A stretch of 64,000 nucleotides of DNA. Origin: an uncultured Pseudomonadota bacterium. GTDB lineage: Bacteria; Pseudomonadota; Alphaproteobacteria; Rs-D84. The stretch lies in the NCBI GenBank assembly GCA_946613885.1, contig CAMOGA010000004.1, forward strand, positions 3,205 to 67,204, given 5' to 3'. Below the pieces are notes generated by a model. It saw only the letters and a list, made by a program, of their open reading frames with translations. It was not told the DNA's origin and did no database searches. The position numbers and the translations under genes are program-made. Of the stretch, positions 7,007 through 39,699 are shown piece by piece. How positions within the stretch are numbered: position 1 is the stretch's first letter; the number at the start of each line of letters is the position of its first letter.

Positions 7007-8086
7007 TTAATCTCCGTTCCTTACTATATTACTTATCATCCCATTTTGGCAAGTGACAAATAAAGATTCAGGAATATTTTCAAAAGTTTTTATATCTAAA
7101 CCCGTGGCCCATACCTGAGATTCCAGTTTGTTCAGCGCATCAAACATTTTTTCGCGCGCACCAATATCCAGATGCGAATCTGCCTCGTCCAGCAAGATAA
7201 TTGGACGTGCGCCTGTTTTTATATGTATTAATTTTGCATGTGCCAAAATCAAATCTAATAATACTGATTTTTGCTGGCCAGTAGATGTTATTTGTGCCGG
7301 TAATTTTAACAGTTTATTAAAAACGCCAAAATCAGATTTATGCACACCATCAATGACCATTTTGTCGCCAATTAAATTTCTATTATTTTGTAAATATTCA
7401 AAATATGCGTTTTCCACCATCGTTGCAGATTTTTCCAACAACATATTTTCCAACATACCGTTAACCGATACCGCACCTGTTTCAAAAAAATAATTTATTT
7501 CACCAGCATACCTTATTCGGCCGGCTGCAATTGAAACAGATATTGCCGCAATCTGTTTATCAATCGCATTTAGCCAATTATTATCACCACCGTTTTTTAT
7601 TACCCCACCCCGCTCAGATAACAATTTATTTAAATGTGAAATATGTCCAATGTGCGATGGTTCAAAACTGGTTATCAAATGGTCAAAAAAAGCCCGACGT
7701 TCAGATACACCATCCATAAAAATTCTGTCTTCGCGCGGTGTTAACCAGACAATACGTAAATTTTTTGATAATTCTGACAAAGGAACATTTTCATTATTTA
7801 TTTTTGCACGCCGATTCGAATCCCCACTGTTCATCGATACACATATATCATTTTCATCAGATGTCGTCACAAAAACCGAAAAACCACCATCACCATCAAA
7901 TCGTGCCAATGTTTGAATATCTGCGCCACGCAAACCACGTTCACCAGATAATAAAGATATTGCTTCCAATATCGCAGTTTTACCGGCACCGTTTAATCCG
8001 GTTATAATAATATTTTTCGCCCCATCTATTTTAATTCTGGAAACAGCATGATTGCGGAAATTAGTAAGGGTTATTTGTTCTATCAT
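7007..8086 (-). CDS. recF: DNA replication/repair protein RecF
   Basis: Walker A GLNGAGKT, SMC-like signature and Walker B ILLDEADSHLD. The track ORF (GTG at 8176) reads through the tRNA. ATG at 8086 (MIEQITLTNFRNH) is the plausible start. Confidence 0.9.
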   Translation of the reverse strand: MIEQITLTNFRNHAVSRIKIDGAKNIIITGLNGAGKTAILEAISLLSGERGLRGADIQTLARFDGDGGFSVFVTTSDENDICVSMNSGDSNRRAKINNENVPLSELSKNLRIVWLTPREDRIFMDGVSERRAFFDHLITSFEPSHIGHISHLNKLLSERGGVIKNGGDNNWLNAIDKQIAAISVSIAAGRIRYAGEINYFFETGAVSVNGMLENMLLEKSATMVENAYFEYLQNNRNLIGDKMVIDGVHKSDFGVFNKLLKLPAQITSTGQQKSVLLDLILAHAKLIHIKTGARPIILLDEADSHLDIGAREKMFDALNKLESQVWATGLDIKTFENIPESLFVTCQNGMISNIVRNGD

Positions 8087-8096
8087 TTCAAGTAAT

Positions 8097-8170
8097 TGGA
8101 GGCCAGGGTCGGAATCGAACCGGCATCCAAGGATTTGCAGTCCTCTGCATAACCACTCTGCCACCTGGCC
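8097..8170 (-). tRNA. tRNA-Cys (anticodon GCA)
   Basis: Reverse complement GGCCAGGTGGCAGAGTGGTTATGCAGAGGACTGCAAATCCTTGGATGCCGGTTCGATTCCGACCCTGGCCTCCA. It has a 7-bp acceptor stem, anticodon loop CUGCAAA, T-loop TTCGATT, discriminator U73 and encoded CCA. One C-A mismatch in the T stem. Confidence 0.9.
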
Positions 8171-8184
8171 ACTCACACGGGGGT

Positions 8185-8290: not shown

Positions 8291-9610
8291 ATGAATAAAT
8301 TTTTTATATGTTTTTGTTATATACTGTTTCCCTTATTCGCCGTTGCAAACGACAATTGTGCCAGTTTGCATAAAATCCCAGACAAACAAATGTCTTTGAT
8401 TGATGTTGTTAATATGGGATTGTGTCGTAATCCGCGAACCAGCGCAGCATATGCAGCATTACAATCTGCAAGATATACAAAAAATGCGGCACATTCTTAT
8501 TATTTACCGTCCGTATCTGGGCATGCCGGTGCGAATCGTTCACACACCGAACACGATGATTGGAATTATACTGCATCATTATCTGCATCATATTTGATTT
8601 TTGATTTCGGCAAACGTGAATCTGATTTTGCACAGACACTGGCAACATATCGCGCGGCAGGTTTTGATTACGATGAAACAATTCAAAATTTTATTTATTC
8701 ATTGGTTGGTGCTTATTATGCTCTGTTAAATGCAGATGCAGATGTTGTTGCCGCACAATCTGCTTTAACTGTGGCACAAACTGCAAAAAATACCGCAGAT
8801 AAAAAATATAAATCTGGTGTTGTTGCAAAATCCGATGTGTACAAAGCAGACACCACATTGGCTTCGTCACAATTGGCATTAGAACGTGCAAAAAACAATC
8901 GTAAAATTACTCAGGCAAATTTATTAAACCTGATGTCGTTTTCGGCAGACCAAAATATAAAAATCAAAGACATGCCCGCAACATTTGGTTCAGATGCAGA
9001 AAGTGAAAACATTGATACATTAATAAAAATTGCACGTGAAAAAAGACCAGATTTATTAAAAGCAAAATCACAAACCAATGCCGCATGGCATCGCAGGAAC
9101 AGTGCATTTTTGAAAAATCTGCCATCAATATCTGTTAATGGGGACATTGGCACCACAGATAAAACCGTGGGTGGAATGTTTGATAATATGTCTTTGAAAA
9201 CCAAAGGCAATTTTGGTGTGTCTGTATCCATGCCTATTTTTACTGGTTTTTTAAATTATTATAACGCACGTTCTGCCGGTGCAGATTATGAAAATATGAA
9301 ATATAACGAACAAAACGTATCAAACAATGCGATGATGGACGTATTTACTGCGTATCAAAATTATAAAACAGCACAAACAGTATTAACACAAACCAAAACA
9401 TTATTAAAATCTGCAACGGAAAGTGAACGCGTGACTGCTGGGATGTATCGGGTTGGTCGCGCAACAATGTTAGATTGGCAAACCGCCCAATCTGAATTAG
9501 TGAACGCACAAAAAGAACATAATTCTGCGAAATACGATTTATTTATTAAACGTGCCGCGGTTGCATTGGCTATTGGCGATATAAAAAATGGAATAAAGGA
9601 TAATAAATAA
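8291..9610 (+). CDS. TolC-family outer membrane efflux channel
   Basis: Signal peptide plus two coiled-coil/beta repeats typical of OEP/TolC. Overlaps the next gene by 1 nt. Confidence 0.85.
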   Translation: MNKFFICFCYILFPLFAVANDNCASLHKIPDKQMSLIDVVNMGLCRNPRTSAAYAALQSARYTKNAAHSYYLPSVSGHAGANRSHTEHDDWNYTASLSASYLIFDFGKRESDFAQTLATYRAAGFDYDETIQNFIYSLVGAYYALLNADADVVAAQSALTVAQTAKNTADKKYKSGVVAKSDVYKADTTLASSQLALERAKNNRKITQANLLNLMSFSADQNIKIKDMPATFGSDAESENIDTLIKIAREKRPDLLKAKSQTNAAWHRRNSAFLKNLPSISVNGDIGTTDKTVGGMFDNMSLKTKGNFGVSVSMPIFTGFLNYYNARSAGADYENMKYNEQNVSNNAMMDVFTAYQNYKTAQTVLTQTKTLLKSATESERVTAGMYRVGRATMLDWQTAQSELVNAQKEHNSAKYDLFIKRAAVALAIGDIKNGIKDNK

Positions 9611-10791
9611 TGGAACCTGAAATCAAAAAAACTTCTTTTATTCAAAGATTTTTCGGATGGATATGGCGGCACAAATGGTGGTCTGGATTGATATTATTAA
9701 TATTGATTGGTGGCGGTATTTGGATATATTTTGGAACCAGAACCAAAAGCAAAGATATGTTAACAGTAGATATTGTGCGTGGCGATATTGTTCAAACTGT
9801 CACCGCCACAGGAGAAATACAACCTGTAAACACTATCAATGTTGGGTCACAGGTATCCGGCACAATCGAAGATATTTTTGTTGATTATAATTCCCATGTA
9901 AAGCAAGGCGATTTATTATTAAAAATTGAACCGTCTGTTTTACAATCTACTGTTGACGAGGCCAAGGCATCTTTGGATTCTGCAAAATCAGAATTAAAAT
10001 ATGCGCGCAGTGAATACGAACGAAATCAATCTTTATATAACGATGGGTTTATATCACGTGCTGAAATGGAAAAATCACAAACAATATATGAACAAGCCGC
10101 CCAAGCGGTTAACAAAGCACAATATTCATACGAACGCGCGGTCACTAATCTGGGATACGCAACAATTACTTCACCTGTGGATGGAACGGTTATTTCACGC
10201 AAAGTAGACAAAGGTCAAACCGTTGCCGCATCTTTCCAAACACCGGATTTATTCGAAATTGCCGAAGATTTATCAAAAATGCAAATTGAAACCGCAGTAT
10301 CAGAGGCCGATATTGGTATGATAAAAGAAGGTCTGCCGGTGACATTTACTGTGGATGCATATCCAAACCAAACGTTTCATGGCAATATTCAACAAATCCG
10401 TTTGTCGCCAACAACGGTATCTAATGTGGTCGTTTATACTGTCGTGATTGATGTAGATAACAGCGATTTAAAATTGATGCCAGGTATGACCGCATTTGTG
10501 ACTGTTGTTGTGGCACAGGCAAAAGATACATGGAAAACAAAAAATTCAGGTTTATTATTAAGGTCTTTTAAAAATATATTTCCAGATGCCCCAGAAAATA
10601 TTACGCCAAAAACACACATGGCGATAAAACGCGGTAAAGATATAATTTTTATTCCATATAAACGTGGAATTACAACACCAACAGACACACAAATCATATC
10701 AGACGAAATTCGTGAAAACGATAAAATTGTTGTCGGGTTTTCTGGTCAAACAACAAATAATAAATCAACCATGCGCGGGCCAAGAATGTAA
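9610..10791 (+). CDS. macA: Periplasmic adaptor (HlyD/MacA family membrane fusion protein)
   Basis: N-terminal TM helix, lipoyl/barrel-sandwich motifs (GEIQPVNTINVGSQVSGTI, ITSPVDGTVISR), coiled coil. Confidence 0.85.
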   Translation: MEPEIKKTSFIQRFFGWIWRHKWWSGLILLILIGGGIWIYFGTRTKSKDMLTVDIVRGDIVQTVTATGEIQPVNTINVGSQVSGTIEDIFVDYNSHVKQGDLLLKIEPSVLQSTVDEAKASLDSAKSELKYARSEYERNQSLYNDGFISRAEMEKSQTIYEQAAQAVNKAQYSYERAVTNLGYATITSPVDGTVISRKVDKGQTVAASFQTPDLFEIAEDLSKMQIETAVSEADIGMIKEGLPVTFTVDAYPNQTFHGNIQQIRLSPTTVSNVVVYTVVIDVDNSDLKLMPGMTAFVTVVVAQAKDTWKTKNSGLLLRSFKNIFPDAPENITPKTHMAIKRGKDIIFIPYKRGITTPTDTQIISDEIRENDKIVVGFSGQTTNNKSTMRGPRM

Positions 10792-11538
10792 ATGAAAAAT
10801 CAACCTGACATTATTGTTATGAAAAAAATTAATAAAACGTTTCCATTGGCAATCGGTGGCGAACAACAGGTTTTATTTGATATAAACTTTATAATTAAAT
10901 CGGGCGAATTTGTCGCAATTATGGGGCCGTCTGGGTCTGGAAAATCAACATGTATGAATATTGTTGGGGCCTTGGATTCTGCGACATCTGGGGTTTATGA
11001 ATTATACGGTAAAGATATTACCACGATGTCTGCTGACGATTTGGCAACAGTGCGAAATGAATACATAGGTTTCGTTTTTCAAAATTTTAACCTGCTGTCA
11101 AAACGCACAATTATCGACAATGTTATGTTGCCGTTAATGTATCGTGGATGGGTTATGAACGACAGAATTATGCGTGCACGCGAAATGTTAAAATTGGTTG
11201 GACTAGAAAAATTTGAAACATATTTTCCAACACAATTATCGGGCGGTATGAAACAACGCGTTGCAATTGCACGTGCATTGGCTGGTAATCCTAAATTAAT
11301 TCTGGCGGATGAACCCACTGGGTCACTGGATTCAAAAATGGGGGACGAGATATTAAAATTTTTTGAAAAGTTAAATCATGATTTTGGAATAACTATCATA
11401 ATGATTACACACGAATTTGAAATCGCACAATATGCTAAACGACTAATTCATATCTATGATGGACGTATTACATACGATGGCATCGTTCCAAAAAACGAAG
11501 GTGTATTATTAAAATCAGAACAACGGCATAAAAAATGA
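10792..11538 (+). CDS. macB: MacB/LolD-type ABC ATPase
   Basis: Walker A GPSGSGKST, signature LSGGMKQR, Walker B LILADEPTGSLD. Confidence 0.9.
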   Translation: MKNQPDIIVMKKINKTFPLAIGGEQQVLFDINFIIKSGEFVAIMGPSGSGKSTCMNIVGALDSATSGVYELYGKDITTMSADDLATVRNEYIGFVFQNFNLLSKRTIIDNVMLPLMYRGWVMNDRIMRAREMLKLVGLEKFETYFPTQLSGGMKQRVAIARALAGNPKLILADEPTGSLDSKMGDEILKFFEKLNHDFGITIIMITHEFEIAQYAKRLIHIYDGRITYDGIVPKNEGVLLKSEQRHKK

Positions 11539-12752
11539 CAATCGGGGATATACTAAAAGAATCTTGGATATCAATCAGCGGAAATAAATTACGGTCTTTT
11601 TTGACAGTACTGGGGATTATTATTGGTGTTATGGCGGTTGTAATTATGGTGGCGGTTGGTGAAACAGTTCAAAAATCTATTACTGACCAATTTTCATCAC
11701 TGGGAACGAACACTATTGTTATTCGTGCAGGCGCAGCGCGCAGTGGTGGTGTTCGCACTGGCAATCGCCAAACATTAACGATTACCGATGCAGAACAAAT
11801 AAAAAAATTACCGGATGTTATGGCAATAACCCCAGCGCAAATGGGGTCTGCTCAGGTTATATATGGCAATAAAAATTGGTCAACGATGATGTTGGGGGCA
11901 TATCCTGACTATGCCACAATCCAAGATATTGACATTGAACATGGAACGTTTTTTGATGATACTGCGGTAAAAAATGCCGCGACATATGCCGTCATTGGAC
12001 CAGATACAGCAACAGAATTAGGGTTATCAGAAAATCCAGTTGGTGAAATCATCAGAATACACAATATGCCATTTGTAATTATTGGTGTTATGAAGGCACG
12101 TGGTGATTCTGCGTTTGGTTCCCAGGATGATATGATTATAATTCCTGTGACAACGTTAAAAAAACGATTACAGGGTTCAAAGTTCCCAGATGCAGTCACA
12201 ATGATTGCATTAAAAATTTTTCCAGATGCAGATAATAATGTTGTTATTGAACAAATAACATCCCTGTTGCGACAAAGACACAGAATCAAAGATACCGATG
12301 AAGATGATTTTCAAATCACAGACATGAAACAAATTATGGAGACAATGGATACCGTGACCGGATATTTGAAATTATTATTAATTGCGATTGCTGCGGTATC
12401 GTTATTGGTTGGGTCTATTGGCATTATGAACATGATGTTAACTTCTGTTGCAGAACGCACGCGTGAAATTGGAATACGCAAGGCAATTGGTGCCAGAGAA
12501 CGTGTGATAATCATCCAATTTTTATCAGAATCTGTTATGATATCTTTTATTGGGTCAATGTTGGGGCTGGTTTTAGGTGTTGGATTATCACAGGGTGTTG
12601 GACGTTTTATTTTACATTACGATGTCCCGTTTTCTATATGGCCGGTGATATTATCTGTGGGTGTGGCGATTGTTGTTGGGTTGGCATCTGGGGTTATGCC
12701 TGCAATCAAGGCCGCAAAATTAAACCCAATCGACAGTTTAAGATATGAATAA
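11535..12752 (+). CDS. MacB/FtsX-type ABC permease with periplasmic domain
   Basis: ATGA overlap with the ATPase gene. N-terminal TM helix, periplasmic domain and C-terminal FtsX-like 3-TM bundle (REIGIRKAIGA). Confidence 0.85.
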   Translation: MTIGDILKESWISISGNKLRSFLTVLGIIIGVMAVVIMVAVGETVQKSITDQFSSLGTNTIVIRAGAARSGGVRTGNRQTLTITDAEQIKKLPDVMAITPAQMGSAQVIYGNKNWSTMMLGAYPDYATIQDIDIEHGTFFDDTAVKNAATYAVIGPDTATELGLSENPVGEIIRIHNMPFVIIGVMKARGDSAFGSQDDMIIIPVTTLKKRLQGSKFPDAVTMIALKIFPDADNNVVIEQITSLLRQRHRIKDTDEDDFQITDMKQIMETMDTVTGYLKLLLIAIAAVSLLVGSIGIMNMMLTSVAERTREIGIRKAIGARERVIIIQFLSESVMISFIGSMLGLVLGVGLSQGVGRFILHYDVPFSIWPVILSVGVAIVVGLASGVMPAIKAAKLNPIDSLRYE

Positions 12753-13769: not shown

Positions 13770-13792
13770 CAATGACACAACAGGGTTTATTT

Positions 13793-14533
13793 ATGACAAG
13801 TCAGAAAAAAATTTCACAAATCGCTCACAAACGCCACAGCAAGGACAAATGTGCGTGTATTGAACATAATAAAAAAGTCATAAATAAATTATTATCTAAA
13901 AACACAACGAAGCGATTAAATAATCTTAATTGGCTGCGACAAAAAATATCTTTTGAAGAATCTAAAAATTTGTTTTATATGCCAAACAATAAACAATCGC
14001 CCTATTTTGATTACAGTTGCACCCGTGGTCTGGGCAATGCATACGATTATATTATTGAACACCACGACATCGAAAAACCACTAAGTTTATCTGATGTGTG
14101 TCAAATTCATTATTTAATATGCAACCAGGCAAACATCCAAATGAACGATTCTTTTATTCGGGCGGGTGTTATTAATCAAACCTCTATCCCGATGGAGATT
14201 GAAAACCAATTAGAAAATATTATTTTTCAATCTACGCATAATGATAAAAAAACCTTCTTTCAGGCATTTGATTTGCATTATCAAATAATACTGTTGCAAC
14301 CATTTGATGATTATAATAAACGTACTGCGCGTATGGTTATGAATTGGTATTTAATAAAAAACGGGTATCATCCAATTGCCTTTACCAAAAAAAACGACAA
14401 AACAAAATACCCAGAATCTTTATTAAAAATGAAACAAAATCATGCGGATTTTTACTATGAATACATGATTCAATCAATGCTGCATACACAAACTGAGATT
14501 ATTAATCAATTACGAGCATTAAAAATTTATTAA
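13793..14533 (+). CDS. Fic/DOC-family protein with degenerate active-site motif
   Basis: LLQPFDDYNKRTARMVMNWYLIKNGYHPIAF matches the Fic core HPFxxGNGRxxR, but with Q for H and YNK for GNG. Confidence 0.6.
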   Translation: MTSQKKISQIAHKRHSKDKCACIEHNKKVINKLLSKNTTKRLNNLNWLRQKISFEESKNLFYMPNNKQSPYFDYSCTRGLGNAYDYIIEHHDIEKPLSLSDVCQIHYLICNQANIQMNDSFIRAGVINQTSIPMEIENQLENIIFQSTHNDKKTFFQAFDLHYQIILLQPFDDYNKRTARMVMNWYLIKNGYHPIAFTKKNDKTKYPESLLKMKQNHADFYYEYMIQSMLHTQTEIINQLRALKIY

Positions 14534-17151: not shown

Positions 17152-17176
17152 ATTGAAAAACCGCCCAATTGGGCGG
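17152..17176 (-). terminator. Rho-independent terminator after the 878-aa gene
   Basis: Minus strand: CCGCCC-aatt-GGGCGG followed by TTTTT. Confidence 0.6.
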
Positions 17177-17181
17177 TAAAA

Positions 17182-19818
17182 TTACAACAATTTAACCTTG
17201 GTTGTAGTGGTTTGTGCCTCTTCCCATTCTTTGCAATAATTCTTTTTCGTCTTTTTGCAATTTTGGGTTGTGGTTTCTTTGGTGCATTCACCTGTTGATC
17301 TGTCAAATGTGGTTGACACTTTCATTTTATAATTCCAATTATTAACTTCCGAATTTCCAATAACCCCACCAGAAGCTGCGATAGATGCTGATGCAACGGT
17401 ACCAGCCACAACGGCTGCGCCAGCCACAACCGTCCCTATTGCGGTTTCTGTTCCTACTATAGAACCTATTATTCCTGCCCCAACTGCCGCACCTGTACCA
17501 GCCGTAAACACAGCCGCCACCACGGATGCCGCCGCGATAACCCCTACAGCAATCCATTTACCAACCTCATTGGCTTTCGGTGTTGCGGTATTCGGTAAAG
17601 TACTCCTTTCTGCCCAATCATAACATAATTGTTCTGCGGCATTTTTATTTTGTTCGCCTGCCATTTTAATCTGGTCTTGCATCATACGCGTCATTTCTTC
17701 ATCATATTTTTTGTTGTAATTTTCACGCGCCTTTTTCAATGCCTTGGTTGCAATTCTTTCACGCAAACTGTTTGTTAAATTCGGAAAGCGCGCATTTTCT
17801 TTACCAATCTTACCAAATTTTTTACCATCAAAACCTTCAACCTGACGACCGGTCATACAGTATATAACGTTCGGATCAGATTCAATGGCATGTATTGTGG
17901 TTTCGACACTGTTTTCCAATGCACGAATTTCAACACCATATACTAAATCAGCAATAATATCTTTATCTTCTTTGGCTAATTTATGTCCCGCCTGTTGCAG
18001 TTTTTGCATATATTCATCAACAGTTGTAAATCCATATTCGCCAGTTTTTGGATTTTTCAATGTATATTCAATATCACCCCAATACACAACACCAGACAAT
18101 TTACCCGCCCAACCTTTGCCTTCGGGTTGAGAAACATCTTTTGAAGAAATTCCATCCGCAGATTCACGACAATCCGATGTCCATGTTATTTCGTTACCGG
18201 ATATGCTGTCGTATTTACAAACCTGATATTTGAACGAACGCGAACCCGCCAATTCATCCAATGCGAAATTATTACAATCATCGGTATCACCACAAACCTT
18301 AACTGTTGCCTCGTCCAATGCCTTTTGACATGCAGTGAATAAATCATTATCAATTTGCAATGCGACACCCTGGGCAATTTGCGCGACATAATCACGCACA
18401 CTGTCTTTGTCATAATCGGTCATACATGCGACCAATTTTTCTTCTGGGCACATATTGCCAATTGTTTCTGTATCTAAACCGATGCATTTTGAATAATCTG
18501 CACCACAAATATCGGTCAAACATTCTTTAACCTCGGTCGTACAAGCATCAACACGCATTGCCCCTAAACGCGCGACAACATAATCCCAAATTGCAGGTTC
18601 CATACGTTCACATGGATCAATTTGTACTTTACAGAAAGAACGTGCCATATCCGGTTTTGCCAGACATGCATCCATTGTTGCAACACCTTTGCCCGCAATA
18701 TCATCTTTACACGCCTTTTGAATACATGTTGAAATATCACCCATACATGATTGGCGTTTTTGTGATTCTATATTTTGTTCTGCCAAACGAATTGTTGGTG
18801 CAGATTCACGCAAGAAATCATCCCACACATAATCACGCACCGAAACACATTGATCCAAAACCTTTTCACAAATAAAACGTTTAGAATCTAATCTTTCCAT
18901 TGTAGATGCGGTTATATCGTATTTTTTTATTGTTTCAACCTTGGTACCGGCTGTACTGACGGCACGGTTATTTTGCATATTTTCAGCCGCAATAGTAAAC
19001 ACACATTGCCCCCAATCAGAACCACATGCATCATCACCCATCATACATTTTTTAAATTCAACCATACACGTTCCGCGGTCATATTTGTTTGATTGTGCCA
19101 AAGAATCTTTTAACGCGCCACGCACAGCCGCCTGAGCAGATTTTAATGCCGCGTTGGCTTCTTGTTTTTTCTGGGTTATGCTGTTTGCCAATCCTTTGCA
19201 ATCCGAAGTAATTTGACGCAAATACATCTGTGTTAATAATTTCATATCTTTACTGCAAGAATCAGGAACCTGTTTTTGACATAATTTATTTGCAGAATCA
19301 TATAATGCACGACCAGTTAAATCTGACAGTTCTTCATCATCAAAAGCATCTTCGTCATCATCGTAAATTGAAGACCATTTAACTGTTGTTTTTTCTTTTT
19401 CTTGTGGTTTATTTTTTAATTTCTGAACAGAACCGTCCGCATTATAAACCCTTTCGCCACCACCAAATATAATATCTGCGTTGGCACCCGCCTGAACTTT
19501 TTCAACCTCTTCAGTACTAATACGTTCGGCCTCGGCCAAAGTTTTTCTGATTTCTTCTAAATCAGATTCATATTTTTTGGATTCATCACTGCAAGAACAC
19601 GAACCTCCATTTTCATTATCAACAATACAAAAATTATCCATACATGCATAATATGTATTATAACATTCTTCGTCATAAACCCCGGTTGCCTCTACTCTGG
19701 CCCGAACCTTAGTTCCACCAGTAATTGCGGAAGATTTAGAAGCAGCAAACGAATCGCCTGTTATAGCAAACACACCCAACAAACCGACAAATAAACCAAA
19801 CCTAAAAAAGTGCTTCAT
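17182..19818 (-). CDS. CMD-box cysteine-rich secreted protein, paralog A (878 aa), with C-terminal Gly-zipper hydrophobic region
   Basis: GGAGAGAGAG SD, signal peptide (..DSFA|AS), about 36 Cys, motif CYNTYYACMDNFCIVDNENGGSCSCSD. Colinear with the 894-, 725- and 772-aa ORFs. No family recognised. Confidence 0.85.
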   Translation of the reverse strand: MKHFFRFGLFVGLLGVFAITGDSFAASKSSAITGGTKVRARVEATGVYDEECYNTYYACMDNFCIVDNENGGSCSCSDESKKYESDLEEIRKTLAEAERISTEEVEKVQAGANADIIFGGGERVYNADGSVQKLKNKPQEKEKTTVKWSSIYDDDEDAFDDEELSDLTGRALYDSANKLCQKQVPDSCSKDMKLLTQMYLRQITSDCKGLANSITQKKQEANAALKSAQAAVRGALKDSLAQSNKYDRGTCMVEFKKCMMGDDACGSDWGQCVFTIAAENMQNNRAVSTAGTKVETIKKYDITASTMERLDSKRFICEKVLDQCVSVRDYVWDDFLRESAPTIRLAEQNIESQKRQSCMGDISTCIQKACKDDIAGKGVATMDACLAKPDMARSFCKVQIDPCERMEPAIWDYVVARLGAMRVDACTTEVKECLTDICGADYSKCIGLDTETIGNMCPEEKLVACMTDYDKDSVRDYVAQIAQGVALQIDNDLFTACQKALDEATVKVCGDTDDCNNFALDELAGSRSFKYQVCKYDSISGNEITWTSDCRESADGISSKDVSQPEGKGWAGKLSGVVYWGDIEYTLKNPKTGEYGFTTVDEYMQKLQQAGHKLAKEDKDIIADLVYGVEIRALENSVETTIHAIESDPNVIYCMTGRQVEGFDGKKFGKIGKENARFPNLTNSLRERIATKALKKARENYNKKYDEEMTRMMQDQIKMAGEQNKNAAEQLCYDWAERSTLPNTATPKANEVGKWIAVGVIAAASVVAAVFTAGTGAAVGAGIIGSIVGTETAIGTVVAGAAVVAGTVASASIAASGGVIGNSEVNNWNYKMKVSTTFDRSTGECTKETTTQNCKKTKKNYCKEWEEAQTTTTKVKLL

Positions 19819-19840: not shown

Positions 19841-22018
19841 TTACATATTTATGTCTTCACAAGATTCGATTTGCTGACAAAAATCGGTTTTCCCGCCAGA
19901 TTGATACCCCAACACACCGGCACCAACCGCACCAACAACACCACCAATTGCCGTTCCCCATCCAGCATTTATCATTGTTCCTGCGGATGCGCCTGCGGAC
20001 AAACCACCGGCTGCTGCCTTCAATGCGGCGGTTGATTTTTTCTCGCCACCTTGTTCGCAAACCTGTTGCATACGACACACATGACAATTACGTGTATTTG
20101 GTTCAAACGAAACACTTTTTATATACATGTAATTTGATTTTGAATTCTTTGGTTGTTCTGCTTTGTATGTATTCAAACAAACCTGTTCCGCCTTGCTTAC
20201 ATCAGCTTTGCGTGTTAATTCTGCAATTTTCGTATCTAATTCACGCAAATTACGATTTTCTGCTGACATTTTTGCCAATAATTTTGCGGTATTAAATACA
20301 TTTGTTCCCAAAGAATTTTTTCCTTTCAATTTTTTACCACTGCCACTTTGTGAATCAGCGCATGCCGCAACCGTCTTGTCACGTTCAAATTGTTTGAAAA
20401 ATTCTTCAACAGACGCATCAGAGGCAGCGATTATCTTTGCACGCAAATTCGCAGATTTTGATTCAGTATCAGGCAGTTCTGTTAATTTTTCTACATCGTT
20501 TACAATTGGTAAACACGCCATATCTGTCCCACAAACCTTGCTTAATTGTTCACTAAAATAATTTACACAACCTGTTAACATCTGGTAATCCATTTGCAGA
20601 ATCGCAGATTGCACAATTATATCAAATTGAACTGCATTTTTACACGATGGGAACATACTCTGTGGACACAATGCTACAATTTCATACGATTTTTTACCAA
20701 CACATTCTGGTTTAGTAAAATCAACACCGCATTTATCTTGCAAGCATTTATCAACATCATTTTCACAGAATTTTGTCTGTAAATACCCCAGTTTATCATT
20801 AATTACAGATTGAAACCCAGGAATCATGTCATTACATTCTGTGATAACTGGACATATTCCAGCCGCCACATTAACATTAGTCAAACATTCCGCATTTGTA
20901 GATGTAGAACAACTTTCTTCCAAACAATTTTGAACACGTGCCAAACACGTTCCACGCTTGTTTGTATCTGCGTATTTTGCCGCCTCTGCCAGAACGCTTT
21001 TGGATTCAGCCGCCCAATCTTCGACAACATAATCACGTACCGCCATACACTGATCCAGAATATTATCACACGCATTTGAACGACGTTGCAATAATCCTGC
21101 ATCCAGACAGTTTTCAAAATTTGCACCACAACCACCCTTGTCTGCTATGCACGCACGATATGCCAACAAACATTCGCCACGATTGTATTTGTTTGTTGTG
21201 TCCAACATTTCCAAACGCGCTTTGCGAACCGCAGATTCCGCAATACGTTTATTAGATTCTGCATTTGCCTTTTGTTCTTTCAAATACGCATCATAAGTTT
21301 TGCAATCTTGGGTCACCATACGAGAATATAACAATTCTTCCATTTTTGCCCTATCACCACATGCCGCCAAATCTGGTTTACAATATTTTACCGCCATACC
21401 ATACAAAGAATCGCCAATTTCCACATCTTCATCCAAATCGCCACTATCATCACCAGATAACCAAGACATAAAATCTATACTGGAAATTTTCTGACTGGCC
21501 GGCGCATCATCTTTGAACACCAATCGTGCCTTGGCACCCAATTGTTCACGTTCGACACCTTCGGTAAACAATTTGTCGGCTTCTTCTTGAATTTTTAAAA
21601 CTTCATTAATTTTACTTTTGGCGCGTTCTATATTATCAGAACATGCGCAACGTTCACCCTGGCTTTCATCCAACAAACAAAAATTATCCATACATTCACG
21701 ATACGCATCACGACAATCGTTTGACGATACAACCGCATCATCAGACGCATCAACCATATCATCATCCGAATCGTCTGCAACATCATCATACACAGGCAAT
21801 GCCTGAGCCGCCGCAACAGTGTCGGCAGTAATCATTGCCCCAGCCGAAGTCGAAGTATTTGTATTTGTTTGTATGGCTTTGCCGGCCATACCTGGCATAC
21901 GTGCCGATGTTTGATTATTTCTGCTGACCCCAACGCGAACCTCGCTATCCCCGCGAGATGCCGCAAACGCGACCATTGGAACTAATAAAACCAACGGTAA
22001 AATTTTTATTATTTTCAT
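19841..22018 (-). CDS. CMD-box cysteine-rich secreted protein, paralog B (725 aa), with Gly-zipper near the C-terminus
   Basis: ATG 22018 (MKIIKILPLVLL...) lies 9 nt after an AGAGGGA SD. Contains CRDAYRECMDNFCLLDESQGERCACSD. Stop is 22 nt upstream of the paralog A start, suggesting an operon. Confidence 0.85.
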   Translation of the reverse strand: MKIIKILPLVLLVPMVAFAASRGDSEVRVGVSRNNQTSARMPGMAGKAIQTNTNTSTSAGAMITADTVAAAQALPVYDDVADDSDDDMVDASDDAVVSSNDCRDAYRECMDNFCLLDESQGERCACSDNIERAKSKINEVLKIQEEADKLFTEGVEREQLGAKARLVFKDDAPASQKISSIDFMSWLSGDDSGDLDEDVEIGDSLYGMAVKYCKPDLAACGDRAKMEELLYSRMVTQDCKTYDAYLKEQKANAESNKRIAESAVRKARLEMLDTTNKYNRGECLLAYRACIADKGGCGANFENCLDAGLLQRRSNACDNILDQCMAVRDYVVEDWAAESKSVLAEAAKYADTNKRGTCLARVQNCLEESCSTSTNAECLTNVNVAAGICPVITECNDMIPGFQSVINDKLGYLQTKFCENDVDKCLQDKCGVDFTKPECVGKKSYEIVALCPQSMFPSCKNAVQFDIIVQSAILQMDYQMLTGCVNYFSEQLSKVCGTDMACLPIVNDVEKLTELPDTESKSANLRAKIIAASDASVEEFFKQFERDKTVAACADSQSGSGKKLKGKNSLGTNVFNTAKLLAKMSAENRNLRELDTKIAELTRKADVSKAEQVCLNTYKAEQPKNSKSNYMYIKSVSFEPNTRNCHVCRMQQVCEQGGEKKSTAALKAAAGGLSAGASAGTMINAGWGTAIGGVVGAVGAGVLGYQSGGKTDFCQQIESCEDINM

Positions 22019-22044
22019 ATGAAACATTCCCTCTTTACCGTTTT

Positions 22045-22406: not shown

Positions 22407-22430
22407 CAAACCACATTTTGTGGTTTTTTT
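22407..22430 (+). terminator. Rho-independent terminator after infA
   Basis: AAACCACA-tttt-GTGGTTT followed by a T run. Confidence 0.55.
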
Positions 22431-22490: not shown

Positions 22491-24809
22491 ATGAGAAAAA
22501 TTTGTCTGATTTTAATCGGGCTTGTGTTGTGCATTAATAATGTTAATGCGGCTGTTCGTAATACTAACACACAAAATACAAGACAAATTGTATCCCCAAG
22601 AAATGATGTGAACACAATTGTTCGTGCAACCACGCAAAAACGTACTGTCACACAACGTTCATCTGGCAAAAATCAGAATACATCTGTGCGCGGAACTGCT
22701 AAAAAAACAGTAATTGGTCGTTCTGCAACGCAACCGATTACGTCTGCACGTAATAATATTGCACAACCAACCCGCGTATCACGTGCTGCAACAAATAATA
22801 TAAAAACACGTACATTTGGTGATAATTATAATTCATGTCGCGATGCATACTTTACGTGTATGGATCAATTTTGTGCAAATGTAAATGAAAATTATCGTCG
22901 CTGCGTTTGTTCGTCTAAATTAAAAGATATTCAAAACAAAGAAAAATTATTATCACAAACATCAACCAATCTGCAAAGTTTCGAAGATTTTAATATTGAT
23001 GCGATTTCAAAAACTGCCGCTGAGGTAAAAGCAATGGGTTCTGCAACAGCCGGTGAATCCGCAATAAAAAAAGACACATCTGCCAGTGCAAAAACATTAA
23101 ACAGCGTCAGTAGTGTTTTAAGTGATACAAAAAAACAATCTTTATCAACCGCTGGGAAATTAGATGCGGGTGGCGACATCAAAACAATCTGGGCAACAAC
23201 CGATTTTATTGGTGGTGCAGATATTGCCAATCTGACAGGCGATGCATTATTTAATGCAGTTCATTCACAATGCGCAGAAATGGTTGCTGAATCTTGTGCA
23301 GATTCTAATTTGAAAATGGTATCTTCTGCATATGGAATGTATATTGAAAATGATTGTGCGGTATTAGAAAATAACCTGAATAAAAAAACAACCGCGGCAA
23401 ATGCATCAATACGAACAACGCGTCATAAAATGCAGGACGCACGTTTGGAAAATTATAATGCACACAATTCATTAAATCTGGATGATTGTATTGCACGTGT
23501 TCGTTCAGATATTATCGCGGATACCGCATGTGGTGATGGATATATTCATTGTTTAGATTTTTCCGGTAAATATTTAAATATCACAACAGGTGCACCAATT
23601 TATTCGCCAGATTTTTACCAAATCGAAAATCAAATATCTTTATCTGGTGATGTTTTAAATAACAGTCAAAATTCATCGTTTATTACGATGCTGAACAAAA
23701 AACGGGCATTTGCCAAAAAAGATTTAGATTTATGTGTTGATGATGCAGATTATGTATGGAACGAATTTTTACGTCAGGCATTGGTTGAAATTTATCAGGG
23801 TCAACAAAAACGTGTTCAAAATGTAAAAAATGAATGTTTACAGGTTGTAAATGAATGTTATTTGAATCAATCTGAATCTTTGAAAAATTTTACAGATTCT
23901 TCTTCGCAAATGATATTCGTGCAATCGCTGGAATTATCCGAAGAAATGTGTGCTGAAAAACTGGATACTTGCAGCAACCTGTACGGTGGTGGCCCAGAAG
24001 GGTTAAACACATTAATTGCAACAATGACTGGCATAACAGATTTAACCATAGAACAATCATGTCCTGCGTTATTGGCAACATATGCTCAATCTATATGCAC
24101 CCCACCTGCCAGCGATTCTGCACATGCATATCCATACGGGTGTCGTAAATATGCGCCTGGTGAATCGTATTATGCCCGTAATGAAATATGCAATACAACA
24201 CTTGTAAATCCGTTTTCACGCTCTGATATTTTAACAACACACACAATGTCTTTGGGATATGCAGATTATGCCGGATATTGTGAAGATAAATCATATAATA
24301 AAATATATACCAGTTGTAATGTCGGATATTATTTACATAACACTGAATGTGCAAATTCAGACAGGGTTCTTTATGATTTTTGTTTACTTAACGCAACAGA
24401 ATGTCTTAAATGTCCTGATAATTTAATATGCCCTGGTGGGACAAAGGCGCCTGTTTCGATTGATGATGATTTGTACCAAAATTGCGGACAATATTATGTT
24501 GGCAGTTTATACCAACAATTGGTTATATACGCATTGCAAAATTGCACACGAACAACAAATACATCAAATGTGTTATCAGAATATCTGTTGTCAGAGGTTG
24601 ATAAAGTAGCAACCAGTGTTCGTATGTCTTTGGTATCTGCTTTGTCCAAAGAATGTTCCGATATGAACGGGTTGTGGGTTGATGCAATATGGTCAGATGA
24701 CAACAATGACGGATACCATGATAAAACTGGGGATACATTATTTGGTGATTTCTATGTTGCAACGGGCGCGAATAAATTGTGGGGTTATTGTAAAAATCCA
24801 AACCAATAA
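22491..24809 (+). CDS. CMD-box cysteine-rich secreted protein, paralog C (772 aa), with CxxCP-type C-terminal module
   Basis: Signal peptide (..NNVNA|AV), R/T/N-rich region, CRDAYFTCMDQFCANVNENYRRCVCSS and later family motifs. The C-terminus contains CLKCPDNLICPGG. Confidence 0.85.
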   Translation: MRKICLILIGLVLCINNVNAAVRNTNTQNTRQIVSPRNDVNTIVRATTQKRTVTQRSSGKNQNTSVRGTAKKTVIGRSATQPITSARNNIAQPTRVSRAATNNIKTRTFGDNYNSCRDAYFTCMDQFCANVNENYRRCVCSSKLKDIQNKEKLLSQTSTNLQSFEDFNIDAISKTAAEVKAMGSATAGESAIKKDTSASAKTLNSVSSVLSDTKKQSLSTAGKLDAGGDIKTIWATTDFIGGADIANLTGDALFNAVHSQCAEMVAESCADSNLKMVSSAYGMYIENDCAVLENNLNKKTTAANASIRTTRHKMQDARLENYNAHNSLNLDDCIARVRSDIIADTACGDGYIHCLDFSGKYLNITTGAPIYSPDFYQIENQISLSGDVLNNSQNSSFITMLNKKRAFAKKDLDLCVDDADYVWNEFLRQALVEIYQGQQKRVQNVKNECLQVVNECYLNQSESLKNFTDSSSQMIFVQSLELSEEMCAEKLDTCSNLYGGGPEGLNTLIATMTGITDLTIEQSCPALLATYAQSICTPPASDSAHAYPYGCRKYAPGESYYARNEICNTTLVNPFSRSDILTTHTMSLGYADYAGYCEDKSYNKIYTSCNVGYYLHNTECANSDRVLYDFCLLNATECLKCPDNLICPGGTKAPVSIDDDLYQNCGQYYVGSLYQQLVIYALQNCTRTTNTSNVLSEYLLSEVDKVATSVRMSLVSALSKECSDMNGLWVDAIWSDDNNDGYHDKTGDTLFGDFYVATGANKLWGYCKNPNQ

Positions 24810-36138: not shown

Positions 36139-36293
36139 TTTTTTATTTCGAAAAATTTTCTAAAAAATAACTTTTTTAAAAAAATCAAGTGTTTTTTTTG
36201 CAAACCGATTCGCTGGATGCTTTTTTTGGGTGCCAAAATATGGTAAAATATACCCAAGATATGGCTCAAAGCCAGGGGAGAAAAAAACAAAAA

Positions 36294-37394
36294 ATGCAAA
36301 AATATCTGAATCAGATTTTGTGCGGTGATTGTATCGAAATTATGCGCAATATTCCGACTGCTTCTGTGGATGCTGTTTTTGCAGATTCACCTTATAATTT
36401 ACAACTGGGTGCAAAAACATTATACAGACCCGAAGACCAAACGGCTGCGCGTGCTGTCCGGGACAGCTGGGATGCGTTTGAATCAAATGCACAATATGAT
36501 GAATTTACTCGCGATTGGATACGGGAGTGCAAACGTATATTAAAACCAGATGGCGCAATGTGGGTTATCGGTTCATATCATAACATTTTTCGCGTTGGTG
36601 CAATTTTACAAGACATGGGATTTTGGATTCTGAACGATATTGTTTGGGTAAAAACTAACCCTATGCCAAATTTCCGTGGAACACGTTTTACAAATGCCCA
36701 CGAAACATTGATTTGGGCAACACCAACAAAAACAGGTAAATATACATTTAATTATGAAACCATGAAAAAATTAAATGGTGGTAAACAAATGCGTTCCGAT
36801 TGGGATATAAATATATGTCTGGGCGAAGAACGCGTTAAAGACAGCGATGGCAAAAGTTTACATAACACACAGAAACCAATGGATTTATTACGCCGTGTGA
36901 TTTTGGCTTCGACAAAACCAGGCGATATAATATTGGATCCATTTGTTGGTTCTGGAACAACCGCGGCAACAGCAAAAGAATTAGGACGGCAATTCATCGG
37001 GATTGATCGTGAAGAATCTTATGTAAATGCCGCCCGTGAACGTGTTGCAAAAATCCAACCAATTGATTTATCTGATATTGAAGTCAGCAAACCAAAACGT
37101 GATGAGATTAAGGTTGCGTTCCGCGAATTAATCGATGCAGGATTGTTGTATGTCGGACAAACCTTGGTTGGTCCACGTGGGGATCGTGTGATGATTACAC
37201 ACGATGGACAATTGATACACACATTGTATGGCAAGGCATCAATTCATGTTATGGCGGCACGCATTCAACACAGCGTCAGTTTTAATGGCTGGGATTATTG
37301 GTCGGCTGAAAAGAAAGACGGTAAATTGGTTCCAATTGATGAATTACGTAAATATGTCCGCAATATCAAATCAAATATGAAACAGGCCGCATAA
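36294..37394 (+). CDS. ccrM: CcrM-type N6-adenine DNA methyltransferase (GANTC-specific family)
   Basis: Appears colinear with Caulobacter CcrM as I recall it (not alignment-checked): GDCIEIM, WVIGSYHNIFRVG, FWILNDIVW, NPMPNFRGTRF, DPFVGSGTT. ATG 36294 follows an AGGGGAG SD. The track start is GTG. Confidence 0.9.
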   Translation: MQKYLNQILCGDCIEIMRNIPTASVDAVFADSPYNLQLGAKTLYRPEDQTAARAVRDSWDAFESNAQYDEFTRDWIRECKRILKPDGAMWVIGSYHNIFRVGAILQDMGFWILNDIVWVKTNPMPNFRGTRFTNAHETLIWATPTKTGKYTFNYETMKKLNGGKQMRSDWDINICLGEERVKDSDGKSLHNTQKPMDLLRRVILASTKPGDIILDPFVGSGTTAATAKELGRQFIGIDREESYVNAARERVAKIQPIDLSDIEVSKPKRDEIKVAFRELIDAGLLYVGQTLVGPRGDRVMITHDGQLIHTLYGKASIHVMAARIQHSVSFNGWDYWSAEKKDGKLVPIDELRKYVRNIKSNMKQAA

Positions 37395-37454: not shown

Positions 37455-39611
37455 TTATTCTATGCCATGTGATTGAGCCACGGCAGTATTTACTATACAT
37501 ATACTGCCCGACACAACACATGCAGATTGAACCAATTCGTATGTATTGCCCTGAATCAAATTAATTTGAACATTTGGACAATCATTCAAACGATTGTTAA
37601 ATTGACTGCATGCCTGTTGCCAAGATGCCATATCTGATACCGCAGATGTTGGCGACACAGTTTCCGGCAAACGCAAGTTCCATTTTACATAGAAATCTTT
37701 TAAAGAATCAATTGTGTGTGTTTTGCCCAATGCAACACTGTTCAAACCATCACCAACACGACAAGTAATGTTGCTGCGTTCAACCAAGGCGGTGATTCCT
37801 GTAACAATTCCACCGACACCGGCACCTGTTGCACCACCAACCAATGCACCCTTGGCGATTTCTGCGCCTTTGTTTGCATCTTTAACAACATCTTGTTTAA
37901 TATTCAATGAAGACAATAATTTTTGTAATTCATTGATTTGATATTGTATTTGGGCAACCGTCAAACAGTTATTATTATGTGAACACAATATTCCCGAATT
38001 GCCAGCCATATATGTTTGCACCTGTAAAGGAACGAACATACATTGTCTGTTAAATGTTTCAACACTTGATTGTGTTGTTCCAGCAGGTGCGCCACATTGT
38101 ATACTTTGACCAATCACCAATGTATTTCCGTCTTGAGACAAAACAATATTCCCACCAACAACTGTTTTGGTATCACCGCCGATTTTTGAAGAAATCGAAT
38201 TAGATATCTGCACATTTTGTTGGTTAGACAAACATTGTTTTACTAAACTGTCGTATAAAACAACTTTTTCTTCCAATTGGTGCAAATCACGACAATGGTC
38301 TTCATCCATTTCGTTAAAATTATATCCATCTGAGAATATTGGTGTTCCTGTAAATGTTTTTACATCACCGTTGCCAGAAAACATGACATTTTTATATGCA
38401 TAACTCTTTAACACACCTGCCTGACCAGATGCATATATCTTAGCACCCAATTCTTTACGGTATTTTTCATCTGTGCATGGATCATTTTTCGCATCAACAG
38501 AATCTAAATATGCCTGATGTTTTTCATTATAATTATGCGCACCAACGCCCGCGCCAATTGCAGTTCCCAATGCCGTACCACCACCAACAGCAACAACCGC
38601 TGTCGTTTTTGTTTTGTTCATCAATGAAAAATCAAACAAATCTTTGTTGCAAGTAAACGAAGAACCCGCACGTTGCCATACTTCGGCCGGATTATCATTA
38701 CCAACAGCCCCGAACAACCAACTGTTTTTAATCAATTCGTCTTTGTTATACGCAGCAACACGAACCAGACATTCTGCATTGCACCCATCCCAACGGGCAT
38801 AATGACCGCGATTACCACTGTATCCGACAGTATTTACGACATCACCTTGTGGATTATCTTTAGACAACATTCCTGCCCGTGCACCATTATATGCACCGAC
38901 ACGATTATTGTATTCTGAATTCACAGCATTTACATCTGAAACCGCAGCAAACGAAGAACCATACGTATTACGATCCAGCAACAAACATGTGTTTTCAGCC
39001 TGATTTGGTGTCAATCCAGTTTTTCTTAACACAAAATTATAATATTGTGGTTGAATAACTCTGGAATTAAAATCCAACCATACATCCGAAGATTGTGCAT
39101 AAACATTACGACAATCAACACGCACCTCTGCAATACATCTTTCAATTTCTGCCTGACACAAATGCATACCGTTCATAACAGAATTTCGAATATCGTCATT
39201 ACAGAACAAATCATTTATTCCGCCCGGCAAAGCCCCAGTATTAATACATTGCAATATGCTGTCCATACACATTTTTATTGTGTACGCAGAATTTCTTACC
39301 CCACCATCTGGGCATTCTGGATCTGGGTCTGGATCCGGGTTTGGATCTGGGTCTGGATCAGGTGTTGGTGTTGGAACGACATGTGGCATACCTGCCTCGA
39401 CCGGTGCAGTGACAACATGAACCGCCGGATTGCCGATTGTATTCAACCCAACCGTTGGTATAGTTGGCATACGCGCAGACATGGTTGAACGCCCACTTTG
39501 TGAATTTTGATTTCCACGTGGATCATCGCGCCCAGCCGCAAACGCAGCACCAAAAACAGCCAATGTGGCAATACTAACCACTGATTTTCCAAATAAATTC
39601 AATACTTTCAT
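37455..39611 (-). CDS. Cysteine-containing secreted/membrane protein, divergent paralog D (718 aa), with (PD)n linker and two Gly-zipper segments
   Basis: AGGGGA SD and signal peptide MKVLNLFGKSVVSIATLAVFGAAFA|A. The SARMP motif is shared with paralog B. The CMD-like box is AYTIKMCMDSILQC. Confidence 0.8.
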   Translation of the reverse strand: MKVLNLFGKSVVSIATLAVFGAAFAAGRDDPRGNQNSQSGRSTMSARMPTIPTVGLNTIGNPAVHVVTAPVEAGMPHVVPTPTPDPDPDPNPDPDPDPECPDGGVRNSAYTIKMCMDSILQCINTGALPGGINDLFCNDDIRNSVMNGMHLCQAEIERCIAEVRVDCRNVYAQSSDVWLDFNSRVIQPQYYNFVLRKTGLTPNQAENTCLLLDRNTYGSSFAAVSDVNAVNSEYNNRVGAYNGARAGMLSKDNPQGDVVNTVGYSGNRGHYARWDGCNAECLVRVAAYNKDELIKNSWLFGAVGNDNPAEVWQRAGSSFTCNKDLFDFSLMNKTKTTAVVAVGGGTALGTAIGAGVGAHNYNEKHQAYLDSVDAKNDPCTDEKYRKELGAKIYASGQAGVLKSYAYKNVMFSGNGDVKTFTGTPIFSDGYNFNEMDEDHCRDLHQLEEKVVLYDSLVKQCLSNQQNVQISNSISSKIGGDTKTVVGGNIVLSQDGNTLVIGQSIQCGAPAGTTQSSVETFNRQCMFVPLQVQTYMAGNSGILCSHNNNCLTVAQIQYQINELQKLLSSLNIKQDVVKDANKGAEIAKGALVGGATGAGVGGIVTGITALVERSNITCRVGDGLNSVALGKTHTIDSLKDFYVKWNLRLPETVSPTSAVSDMASWQQACSQFNNRLNDCPNVQINLIQGNTYELVQSACVVSGSICIVNTAVAQSHGIE
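39315..39374 (-). repeat. In-frame (Pro-Asp)n / PTPT coding microsatellite
   Basis: ggatctgggtctggatccgggtttggatctgggtctggatca encodes PTPTPDPDPDPNPDPDPDPE. Confidence 0.8.
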
Positions 39612-39699
39612 GATATTTCCCCTAGATTCCTGTAAGAACATTATATCATATAATTGACATAATAAAAAGTTTTTTTGTAAATTATTTTTTATAAAAATA

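Follow-up and report, generated by a model that had tools for sequence, protein, structure and literature searches.

The CMD box as the N-terminal signature of a family of exported, probably disulfide-stapled helical proteins in uncultured gut Alphaproteobacteria

The proteins of the CHCH (twin Cx9C) and Cx3C types, such as Cox17, the Mia40 substrates and the small Tims, hold an antiparallel helix-turn-helix together by paired C-xn-C disulfides. They are the closest mechanistic analogue of the proteins described here, four large paralogs (P1 to P4) that carry a cysteine motif, the CMD box, and are encoded in a 64,000-nucleotide stretch of contig CAMOGA010000004.1 from an uncultured alphaproteobacterium of the GTDB group Rs-D84 (the whole stretch is hereafter the window). 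On balance, we take the CMD box to be the N-terminal mark of an unnamed family whose members are large, all-alpha, cysteine-stapled and exported by Sec, with a possible role in the cell envelope or at the surface.

As in the CHCH proteins of the mitochondrial intermembrane space, oxidation of the CMD family is proposed to follow translocation into an oxidising compartment. Unlike those proteins, the CMD family has cysteines spaced by six or seven residues (one heptad) instead of nine or three (C-x6-C or C-x7-C at 52/59, 251/258, 317/324, 358/365, 396/403, 426/433 and 457/465, in the residue numbering of P1 used throughout), a third, loop disulfide in each unit, and four units within 730-1150 amino acids (aa), and it is bacterial and Sec-exported. 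No Pfam match to CHCH (PF06747 and relatives) was found at E<=1 in the four paralogs, and no Foldseek match was obtained. The two-disulfide antiparallel hairpin is supported indirectly in repeats 2-4 by the joint loss of cysteines, residue couplings and helical prediction, and is proposed for the CMD box itself by analogy.

The Helicobacter proteins HcpA-E (Sel1-like) are a looser analogue, being secreted bacterial all-alpha repeat proteins with disulfide-bridged helix pairs. Their repeats, however, are 36-residue units of the Sel1-like repeat (SLR) or tetratricopeptide repeat (TPR) kind with one disulfide and are recognised by Pfam Sel1, whereas the CMD units are longer hairpins with three disulfides. 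Sel1 (PF08238) and TPR gave no match at E<=1, and no PDB profile or Foldseek match was found. The chlamydial OmcB and OmcA offer a looser, functional analogue as exported cysteine-rich envelope proteins to which cross-linking gives rigidity; the genome of Chlamydia is about 1 Mb. OmcB is beta-rich, whereas the CMD core is predicted to be all-alpha, and the pairwise loss of cysteines in the CMD family points mainly to intramolecular bonds, in contrast to the disulfide cross-linking of OmcB and OmcA. The window also differs from the chlamydial case in its peptidoglycan-remodelling genes (SLT, M23), and no chlamydial outer membrane protein family was matched in Pfam (E<=1) or NCBIfam. The CMD family works like disulfide-stapled helical hairpins but belongs to no described family.

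The CMD box and its four copies

A six-frame scan of the window with the regular expression (regex) C-x2-[AT]-[YF]-x2-C-M-D-x-F-C returned exactly four matches, and a C-x-C-[SN]-[DS] tail stretches these cores to 19585, 21635, 22916 and 42997. In this translation, the full box (C-x6-C-M-D-x-F-C-x9-C-x-C) is likewise present four times and no more. The genes and their boxes, with the evidence for each, are the following (ORF, open reading frame; nt, nucleotides; pLDDT, predicted local distance difference test).

17182-19818, minus strand: gene of P1, 878 aa (ORF, alignment, structural model)
19585-19665, minus strand: CMD box of P1, C52-D78, CYNTYYACMDNFCIVDNENGGSCSCSD, regex core at 19627-19665 (regex, model with pLDDT 83-95, alignment)
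19841-22027, minus strand: gene of P2, 728 aa, 22 nt upstream of P1 (ORF, alignment, synteny)
21635-21715, minus strand: CMD box of P2, CRDAYRECMDNFCLLDESQGERCACSD, regex core at 21677-21715 (regex, motif flavour)
22491-24809, plus strand: gene of P3, 772 aa, the most divergent paralog (ORF, alignment)
22836-22916, plus strand: CMD box of P3, CRDAYFTCMDQFCANVNENYRRCVCSS, regex core at 22836-22874 (regex, motif flavour)
40717-43401, minus strand: gene of P4, 894 aa, with a long tail of ARAG repeats (ORF, alignment)
42997-43077, minus strand: CMD box of P4, CQNAFYGCMDAFCMLDNATGGRCQCND, regex core at 43039-43077 (regex, motif flavour)

These are the four copies, at the same intervals, that had been reported from the sequence alone (the original prediction), to which the strands are added here (three minus and one plus). 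From the six-frame residue composition, 0.009 CMDxFC matches are expected in the window, and shuffling the window 200 times gave a mean of 0.005; for the complete 8-residue pattern, the expectation is 7e-7. The CMD box is a real, near-invariant motif far beyond chance.

A fifth, degenerate copy, AYTIKMCMDSILQC (KMCMDSILQC), had also been proposed in ORF 37455-39641 (minus strand), and this ORF was rejected as a member of the family. It scored -2.3 bits against the box profile, which is the level of unrelated window proteins, and hhalign against the family profile gave a probability of 0.1%. The ORF encodes a separate, cysteine-poor secreted protein of 728 aa (718 aa from the second Met) with 23 cysteines, a (PD)n/PNPDPDP linker and two glycine-zipper-like Gly/Ala stretches, and it has no Pfam family.

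P1-P4 align from end to end as paralogs, the others being 22-38% identical to P1, and their cysteine columns are common throughout the alignment. Cysteine makes up 4.1-4.9% of the residues. Each protein begins with a Sec-type signal peptide with an A-x-A cleavage site and without a twin-arginine motif, followed by a low-complexity tail of variable length and then the box; the described position of the box directly after a low-complexity N-terminal region thus holds for all four. In P1, the short tail and the CMD box are followed by an acidic disordered loop and a cysteine-stapled helical core that extends to about residue 515. Beyond the core lie a beta region, helices, a Gly/Ala-rich hydrophobic stretch and a C-terminal beta/Cys domain. 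The pairs 258/317, 370/385 and 426/465 are missing from P3, which possesses a Cys-rich C-terminus of its own. Against Pfam (hmmscan) and NCBIfam at E<=1, P1-P4 gave noise only, and a sequence-profile search of the PDB gave no match. With no fold match either, the motif is unnamed, as had been supposed.

Several features of the tails and C-termini were observed besides. The tails of P2-P4 (for example, 43090-43330, minus strand) and of homologs contain at least one copy of [VT][SA]AR[AS][AG]. The P4 tail has NNARAGKRQ, VSARAGKKQ and AARAGATQKV, and a conserved QKVINTGTKV stands between the last copy and the box in P4-type proteins, immediately ahead of the box. The P2 tail has TSARMP, with a counterpart, MSARMP, in the unrelated 728-aa protein of ORF 37455-39641. 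A C-terminus of the form C-E-D-[IV]-x-M is conserved in window P2 (19841-19861, minus strand) and several sampled P1 orthologs, where it stands after a small beta-rich domain with three conserved cysteines, and window P1 ends differently; the motif may be a sorting or anchoring signal. The C-terminal region of P3 (24300-24560, plus strand) contains a cysteine repeat resembling the ephrin-receptor type (CNVGYYLHNTEC...CLKCPDNLICPGG), which is similar to the 347-aa ORF 45296-46339 and is not found in the other paralogs.

Cysteine pairing and predicted fold

Cysteine conservation was assessed in 414 homologs and in a 95-sequence alignment of full-length members. The latter has 34 conserved cysteine columns and an optional pair (534/550). 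C52, C59, C64, C74, C76, C180, C188 and C207 were never substituted among the 414 homologs, while M60 was kept in 411, D61 in 412 and F63 in 411 of them. The five fixed cysteines of the box are therefore as invariant as had been described within the window.

The variable cysteines were lost strictly in pairs. The pair 370/385 was lost together in 72 of 72 cases (the whole P3 subfamily and five other sequences), 258/317 in 67 of 67 and 358/403 in 5 of 5. Further joint losses were observed for 433/457, 426/465, 534/550 and 509/515, and for 654/732 only in two probably truncated sequences. Pairwise loss indicates disulfides, since the ligands of a metal site would all disappear at once. The conserved cysteines number 29 in the core and 3 in the C-terminal domain, and these odd counts are the sole hint of intermolecular cross-linking.

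Together with the box, the following elements of P1 make up the cysteine pattern of the core (DCA, direct coupling analysis).

19198-19281, minus strand: C180-x7-C188 and C207, never substituted, on helices 169-183 and 186-243
18847-19068, minus strand: repeat 2, C251-x6-C258-x6-C265-x6-C272 ... C317-x6-C324 (258/317 joint loss, DCA, hhalign)
18610-18747, minus strand: repeat 3, C358-x6-C365-x4-C370-x14-C385 ... C396-x6-C403 (358/403 and 370/385 joint loss, DCA)
18424-18543, minus strand: repeat 4, C426-x6-C433-x4-C438-x6-C445 ... C457-x7-C465 (433/457 and 426/465 joint loss, hhalign)

The proposed staples of repeats 2-4 connect 251/258 to 324/317, 358/365 to 403/396 and 426/433 to 465/457 with an antiparallel i/i+7 geometry, each consisting of one outer and one inner bond between a C-x6-C and a C-x6-C or C-x7-C on the antiparallel helix. 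Local pairs (265-272, 370-385 and 438-445) would close the loops. C251-C324, C365-C396, C265-C272 and C438-C445 were assigned by elimination because these residues never vary. Mean-field DCA (effective number of sequences, Neff, 162) gave antiparallel couplings of 244-254 with 319-334, of 354 with 402 and 406, and of 439 with 458, which agree with the hairpin layout of repeats 2-4. It also coupled helix 81-118 with 204-243.

Repeats 2 and 4 are homologous according to their sequence profiles (hhalign probability 96.5%, E=8.5e-10), and the other profile-profile comparisons were weak (repeats 2 and 3, E=0.003; 3 and 4, E=0.002; 1 and 2, E=0.007). All repeat profiles align in register on C-x6-C-[MIL]. 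The box, C52-x6-C59-x4-C64-x9-C74, has the spacing of repeats 3 and 4, with C180-x7-C188 at a distance. By spacing and register, not by statistics, we read the box as the first half of repeat 1 of 4.

The structure of full-length P1 was predicted by AlphaFold2 from 55 sequences, and the model was weak (pLDDT 63) and mostly helical. For the core (residues 44-530), 84 diverse sequences from all four subfamilies were used, and the resulting model was all helical with a pLDDT of 84.3 and a predicted template modelling score (pTM) of 0.63. The box (pLDDT 83-95) forms a helix at 50-64 (C52, C59 and C64), a turn and a short helix at 72-76 (C74 and C76). It is followed by a 40-residue helix (79-118), the acidic disordered loop (119-168), helices 169-183 and 186-243, and then more long helices. 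Foldseek against the PDB gave no match for either the full-length model or the core model (for the latter, best E=3.6, TM<=0.26). Against viral structures, the best hits of the core model were tegument and tape-measure proteins, all non-significant (best E=0.39). We hold the structural part of our reading to be quite likely correct.

On a helical wheel (100 degrees per residue), C52, [YF]56, C59, M60, F63 and C64 lie inside one 140-degree arc, which would be the packing face of an amphipathic helix. C180, C188 and C207, which sit 100-130 residues downstream of the box, are inferred by analogy to be its disulfide partners, and the pairing C52-C188, C59-C180, C64-C74 and C76-C207 is proposed on the same grounds.

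The original prediction had taken the box for a small disulfide-knotted or metal-binding module. Its nature as a cysteine and disulfide element stands, while a self-contained or knotted fold does not, and metal binding appears less likely. A site for Zn, Cu or Fe would be built from the invariant Asp together with the five cysteines, and the C-x-C turn might act as a clamp; C-x-C motifs bind Cu or Zn in some proteins. The five cysteines are never substituted and D61 is nearly so, and as D61 faces the solvent, opposite the packing face, packing fails to explain its conservation. Joint loss cannot discriminate here since the box cysteines never vary. However, the proteins are exported by Sec signal peptides without a twin-arginine motif, every variable cysteine in the rest of these proteins disappears together with a partner, and the C-x6-C-x4-C spacing of the box equals that of the disulfide units. 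There is no C-x2-C and no conserved His, no zinc-domain or other metal-domain Pfam match was found, and a DsbA-like oxidoreductase is encoded in related genomes. We therefore regard a metal site as unlikely, although the C-x-C turn may still bind a metal.

An autonomous disulfide-knotted domain of the knottin or EGF kind, self-folding and shuffleable, would agree with the compactness of the box (27 residues), its density of cysteines and its location beside a disordered tail. Against it, the number of cysteines is odd (five), the prediction is helix, turn and helix, and the spacing is common to three units. The box is N-terminal in every listed profile hit, the complete proteins among these have one architecture, three never-substituted candidate partner cysteines (C180, C188 and C207) follow downstream, and no Pfam EGF or knottin match was found. 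Such a domain is thus highly improbable, and a half-unit of a longer stapled hairpin remains our preferred reading of the box.

Distribution and gene neighbourhood

A profile of 73 positions, covering the box and the following helix, was searched with HMMER against 1.84 billion representative proteins, and 548 protein clusters matched at E<=0.001, of which 237 also passed E<=1e-10. In all 150 listed hits, the match lay within residues 25-255, and the complete proteins were 700-1150 aa long with one architecture, the shorter ones resembling contig-end fragments. The relaxed expression C-x6-C-x4-C-x(5-25)-C-x-C was found in 148 of the 149 retrieved sequences of these hits, the single exception being an N-terminally cut fragment. 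P1 has more than 1285 homologs. None of the 120 listed has a Pfam domain or a name beyond 'hypothetical protein', and their organism names are only 'Alphaproteobacteria bacterium' and 'Candidatus Enterousia merdequi'. The database search thus revealed no named family and showed the motif to be kept in other genomes.

Four motif flavours were distinguished, which match P1 (CYxxYYGCMDQFCI), P2 (CRDAYRECMDxFCLL), P3 (CRDAYFTCMDQFCA) and P4 (CQDAFYGCMDAFCML); the paralogs are therefore ancient orthogroups and not recent duplicates. Of the 91 full-length clusters at 50% identity, 67 are of the P4 type, which is thus the most diversified subfamily, and its tail length is highly variable.

A scan of GTDB species-representative genomes found 306 encoding stretches, of which the best 80 were used as related loci. 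All 80 are from uncultured Alphaproteobacteria or Candidatus Enterousia metagenome-assembled genomes (rumen, yak, sheep, goat, buffalo, horse and Hadza human guts), and their proteins have about 45-65% identity to the window protein. An exact-sequence search of public assemblies for P1 returned no record, and its 98%-identical homolog, P0001, is encoded on an ENA contig whose gene order is the same. The family has so far been found only in uncultured gut Alphaproteobacteria annotated as Candidatus Enterousia. This group was placed in the order Rs-D84, with genomes of about 0.75-1.0 Mb without a tricarboxylic acid cycle or respiration and a probably partner-dependent lifestyle (PMC12306168). 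A literature search found no paper tying these bacteria to cysteine-rich proteins.

The genes of P2 and P1, 22 nt apart, form a bicistronic unit in the window. Two further features belong to this arrangement.

17160-17177, minus strand: strong terminator-like hairpin that closes the P2-P1 unit immediately behind the stop codon of P1
22151-22405, plus strand: infA, the gene of translation initiation factor IF-1, on the strand of P3 in the interval that separates P3 from P2, and part of the conserved order (PF01176 in the related contig L081)

A hairpin at 22408-22426 follows infA. The closely related contig L081 has the same P3-infA-P2-P1 order. P2 and P1 stand in tandem, a median of 19 nt apart, in 75 of the 80 related loci. 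In 61, P3 lay on the other side at an infA-compatible distance, nearly all the remaining loci being cut by contig ends. The trio of P3, P2 and P1 is kept together even where the flanking genes differ. In the window, the neighbouring genes have housekeeping functions (clpP, clpX, pgk, rnhB, an SLT transglycosylase gene, nrdR, a CcrM-like methylase gene, rpoA and rplQ), and P4 comes after rplQ but has a terminator and promoter-like signals of its own. In 10 of the 80 loci (L038:18772-19629, plus strand; L036:16731-17555, plus strand; and eight others), a gene no more than 10 kb from the P3-P2-P1 cluster encodes a membrane-anchored DsbA-like thioredoxin-fold protein (PF01323, active site C-[PG]-Y-C) with a weak ScsC-like N-terminal match.

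The tripartite alpha-helical pore-forming toxins with the ClyA fold (Hbl, Nhe, AhlABC and SmhABC) are likewise paralogous, elongated, helical secreted proteins encoded side by side, and the CMD proteins could accordingly be an offensive system, a multi-component pore-forming or effector complex. In favour of this, the cluster encodes three secreted long-helix paralogs, a partner-dependent lifestyle is probable for the lineage, and SmhB was among the non-significant Foldseek hits (rank 7). The match to the SmhB pore is, however, noise (E=7.3, TM 0.11/0.16), and no Pfam match to HBL or ClyA was found. The Hbl, Nhe, AhlABC and SmhABC toxins have about 350-450 aa and are cysteine-poor. Disulfide stapling would presumably hinder large helix rearrangements, and the genes lie among housekeeping genes with the identity given above across the 80 loci. 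We consider an offensive role improbable.

The paralogs could instead be variable surface antigens or adhesins, with the box as the conserved anchor of a fast-evolving coat protein. The predominance of the P4 type with its widely varying tail is consistent with this idea, as are the other Cys-rich, eukaryote-like surface-type proteins nearby and an autotransporter neighbour in relatives. On the other side, P1, P2 and P3 are single-copy, fixed in synteny and well conserved over their full length, and the window contains one P4 with no cassette arrays seen. A coat of this kind is doubtful, though slightly less so than a pore, and overlaps with the envelope or surface structure that we favour more than it contradicts it.

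In more divergent relatives, other surface-type genes flank P3 (L038:499-3948, plus strand; L038:4020-4709, minus strand; L041:160-3837, plus strand). They encode a Pmp-like autotransporter with GGAI/FxxN repeats, a protein of about 1200 aa whose C-terminus visually resembles a barrel, and a secreted protein (WWxQPTxCR...) that has about 230 aa with 10 Cys and belongs to no Pfam family.

Two secreted Cys-rich ORFs lie between rpsK (48182-48565) and rpoA (44167-45195), where they occupy the usual place of rpsD. ORF 45296-46339 (minus strand) encodes 347 aa with 11% Cys and weak Ephrin_rec_like/TNFR-like matches, and ORF 46411-48069 (minus strand) encodes 552 aa with 6.9% Cys and no Pfam match; the latter has a homolog upstream of rpoA in the related locus L067. 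Their co-transcription, together with P4, with the ribosomal-protein/rpoA operon was considered and is weakened by terminator-like hairpins at 48161-48139 and 43495-43472, which suggest that the two ORFs and P4 are separate transcription units.

Elsewhere in the window, 8291-12752 (plus strand) is a complete TolC-like/HlyD/MacB-type tripartite efflux operon, 13772-14533 (plus strand) encodes a Fic-domain protein, and 36189-37394 (plus strand) encodes the CcrM-like N6-adenine methyltransferase with a RAMA domain. A tRNA-Cys(GCA) gene (8097-8170, minus strand) overlaps the 5' end of a long GTG-initiated ORF (7007-8176, minus strand), and the true start of this recF-like gene is probably near 8086.

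Proposed mechanism and role

In the mechanism that we propose, the proteins would be exported by Sec and their cysteine pairs then oxidised by a DsbA-type oxidoreductase. Each of the four units would form a twin C-x6-C staple between antiparallel helices and a third local disulfide closing the loop. With the staples closed, the core of about 470 residues would be held as a rigid helical body, whose N-terminal end the box would clamp onto helices 169-243. The four ancient paralogs would most likely build a disulfide-rigidified envelope or cell-surface structure, in which the translationally linked P2 and P1 would probably form a heteromer that P3, across infA, may join. This structure would serve envelope integrity or attachment in reduced-genome, probably partner-dependent bacteria. 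We put forward the cellular role tentatively, as a possibility with somewhat less than even chances.

Several points weigh against this model. The eight residues of the proposed box pairing never vary, so that joint loss is uninformative there, and DCA gives weak couplings for the box (53-79 with 168-211). The likeness of repeat 1 to the other repeats is also weak (E=0.007 over 10 columns), so that its common descent with repeats 2-4 is tentative. A DsbA gene was sought in this window and none was found. Part of the conservation of gene order may be general synteny in small genomes. The location in the periplasm, in the outer membrane or at the surface is inferred, as is the formation of a P1/P2 heteromer. 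The Gly/Ala-rich hydrophobic segment of window P1 and P2 is present in 10 of 120 P1 orthologs.

This segment is not in window P3 and P4, and against Pfam it gave sub-threshold glycine-rich families only (Bacteriocin_IIc and C19orf12). A conserved C-terminal glycine-zipper membrane anchor (PF05433-like) was ruled out, as the segment is not conserved in the family.

More speculatively, and with a modest chance of being right, the CMD proteins could be subunits of an undescribed disulfide-locked helical apparatus of the envelope or of attachment, in which P1, P2 and P3 would form a heteromeric rod or lattice without a solved fold relative and P4 would be the diversifying component. The Enterousia group would need it to hold or exchange material with a partner cell, and the twin C-x6-C hairpin would be a new bacterial counterpart of the mitochondrial twin Cx9C fold.

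The twin C-x6-C hairpin, if confirmed, would be a new bacterial case of a disulfide-stapled helical hairpin, and its fold would be one that the PDB lacks. The analysis leads from the motif alone to a structural model open to testing, with a defined disulfide map, four repeat units and a candidate heteromer, and C-x6-C-M-D-x-F-C-x(9-20)-C-x-C can serve as a signature for metagenome searches. The bacteria of the Enterousia group are widespread in rumen, horse, yak and human guts, uncultured and functionally opaque. The four paralogs make up about 10 kb of coding sequence in the window, roughly 1% of a genome of 0.75-1.0 Mb, and are conserved in every related genome recovered. A central part in the cell envelope, or in the partner-dependent way of life that is suspected for these bacteria, is therefore likely.

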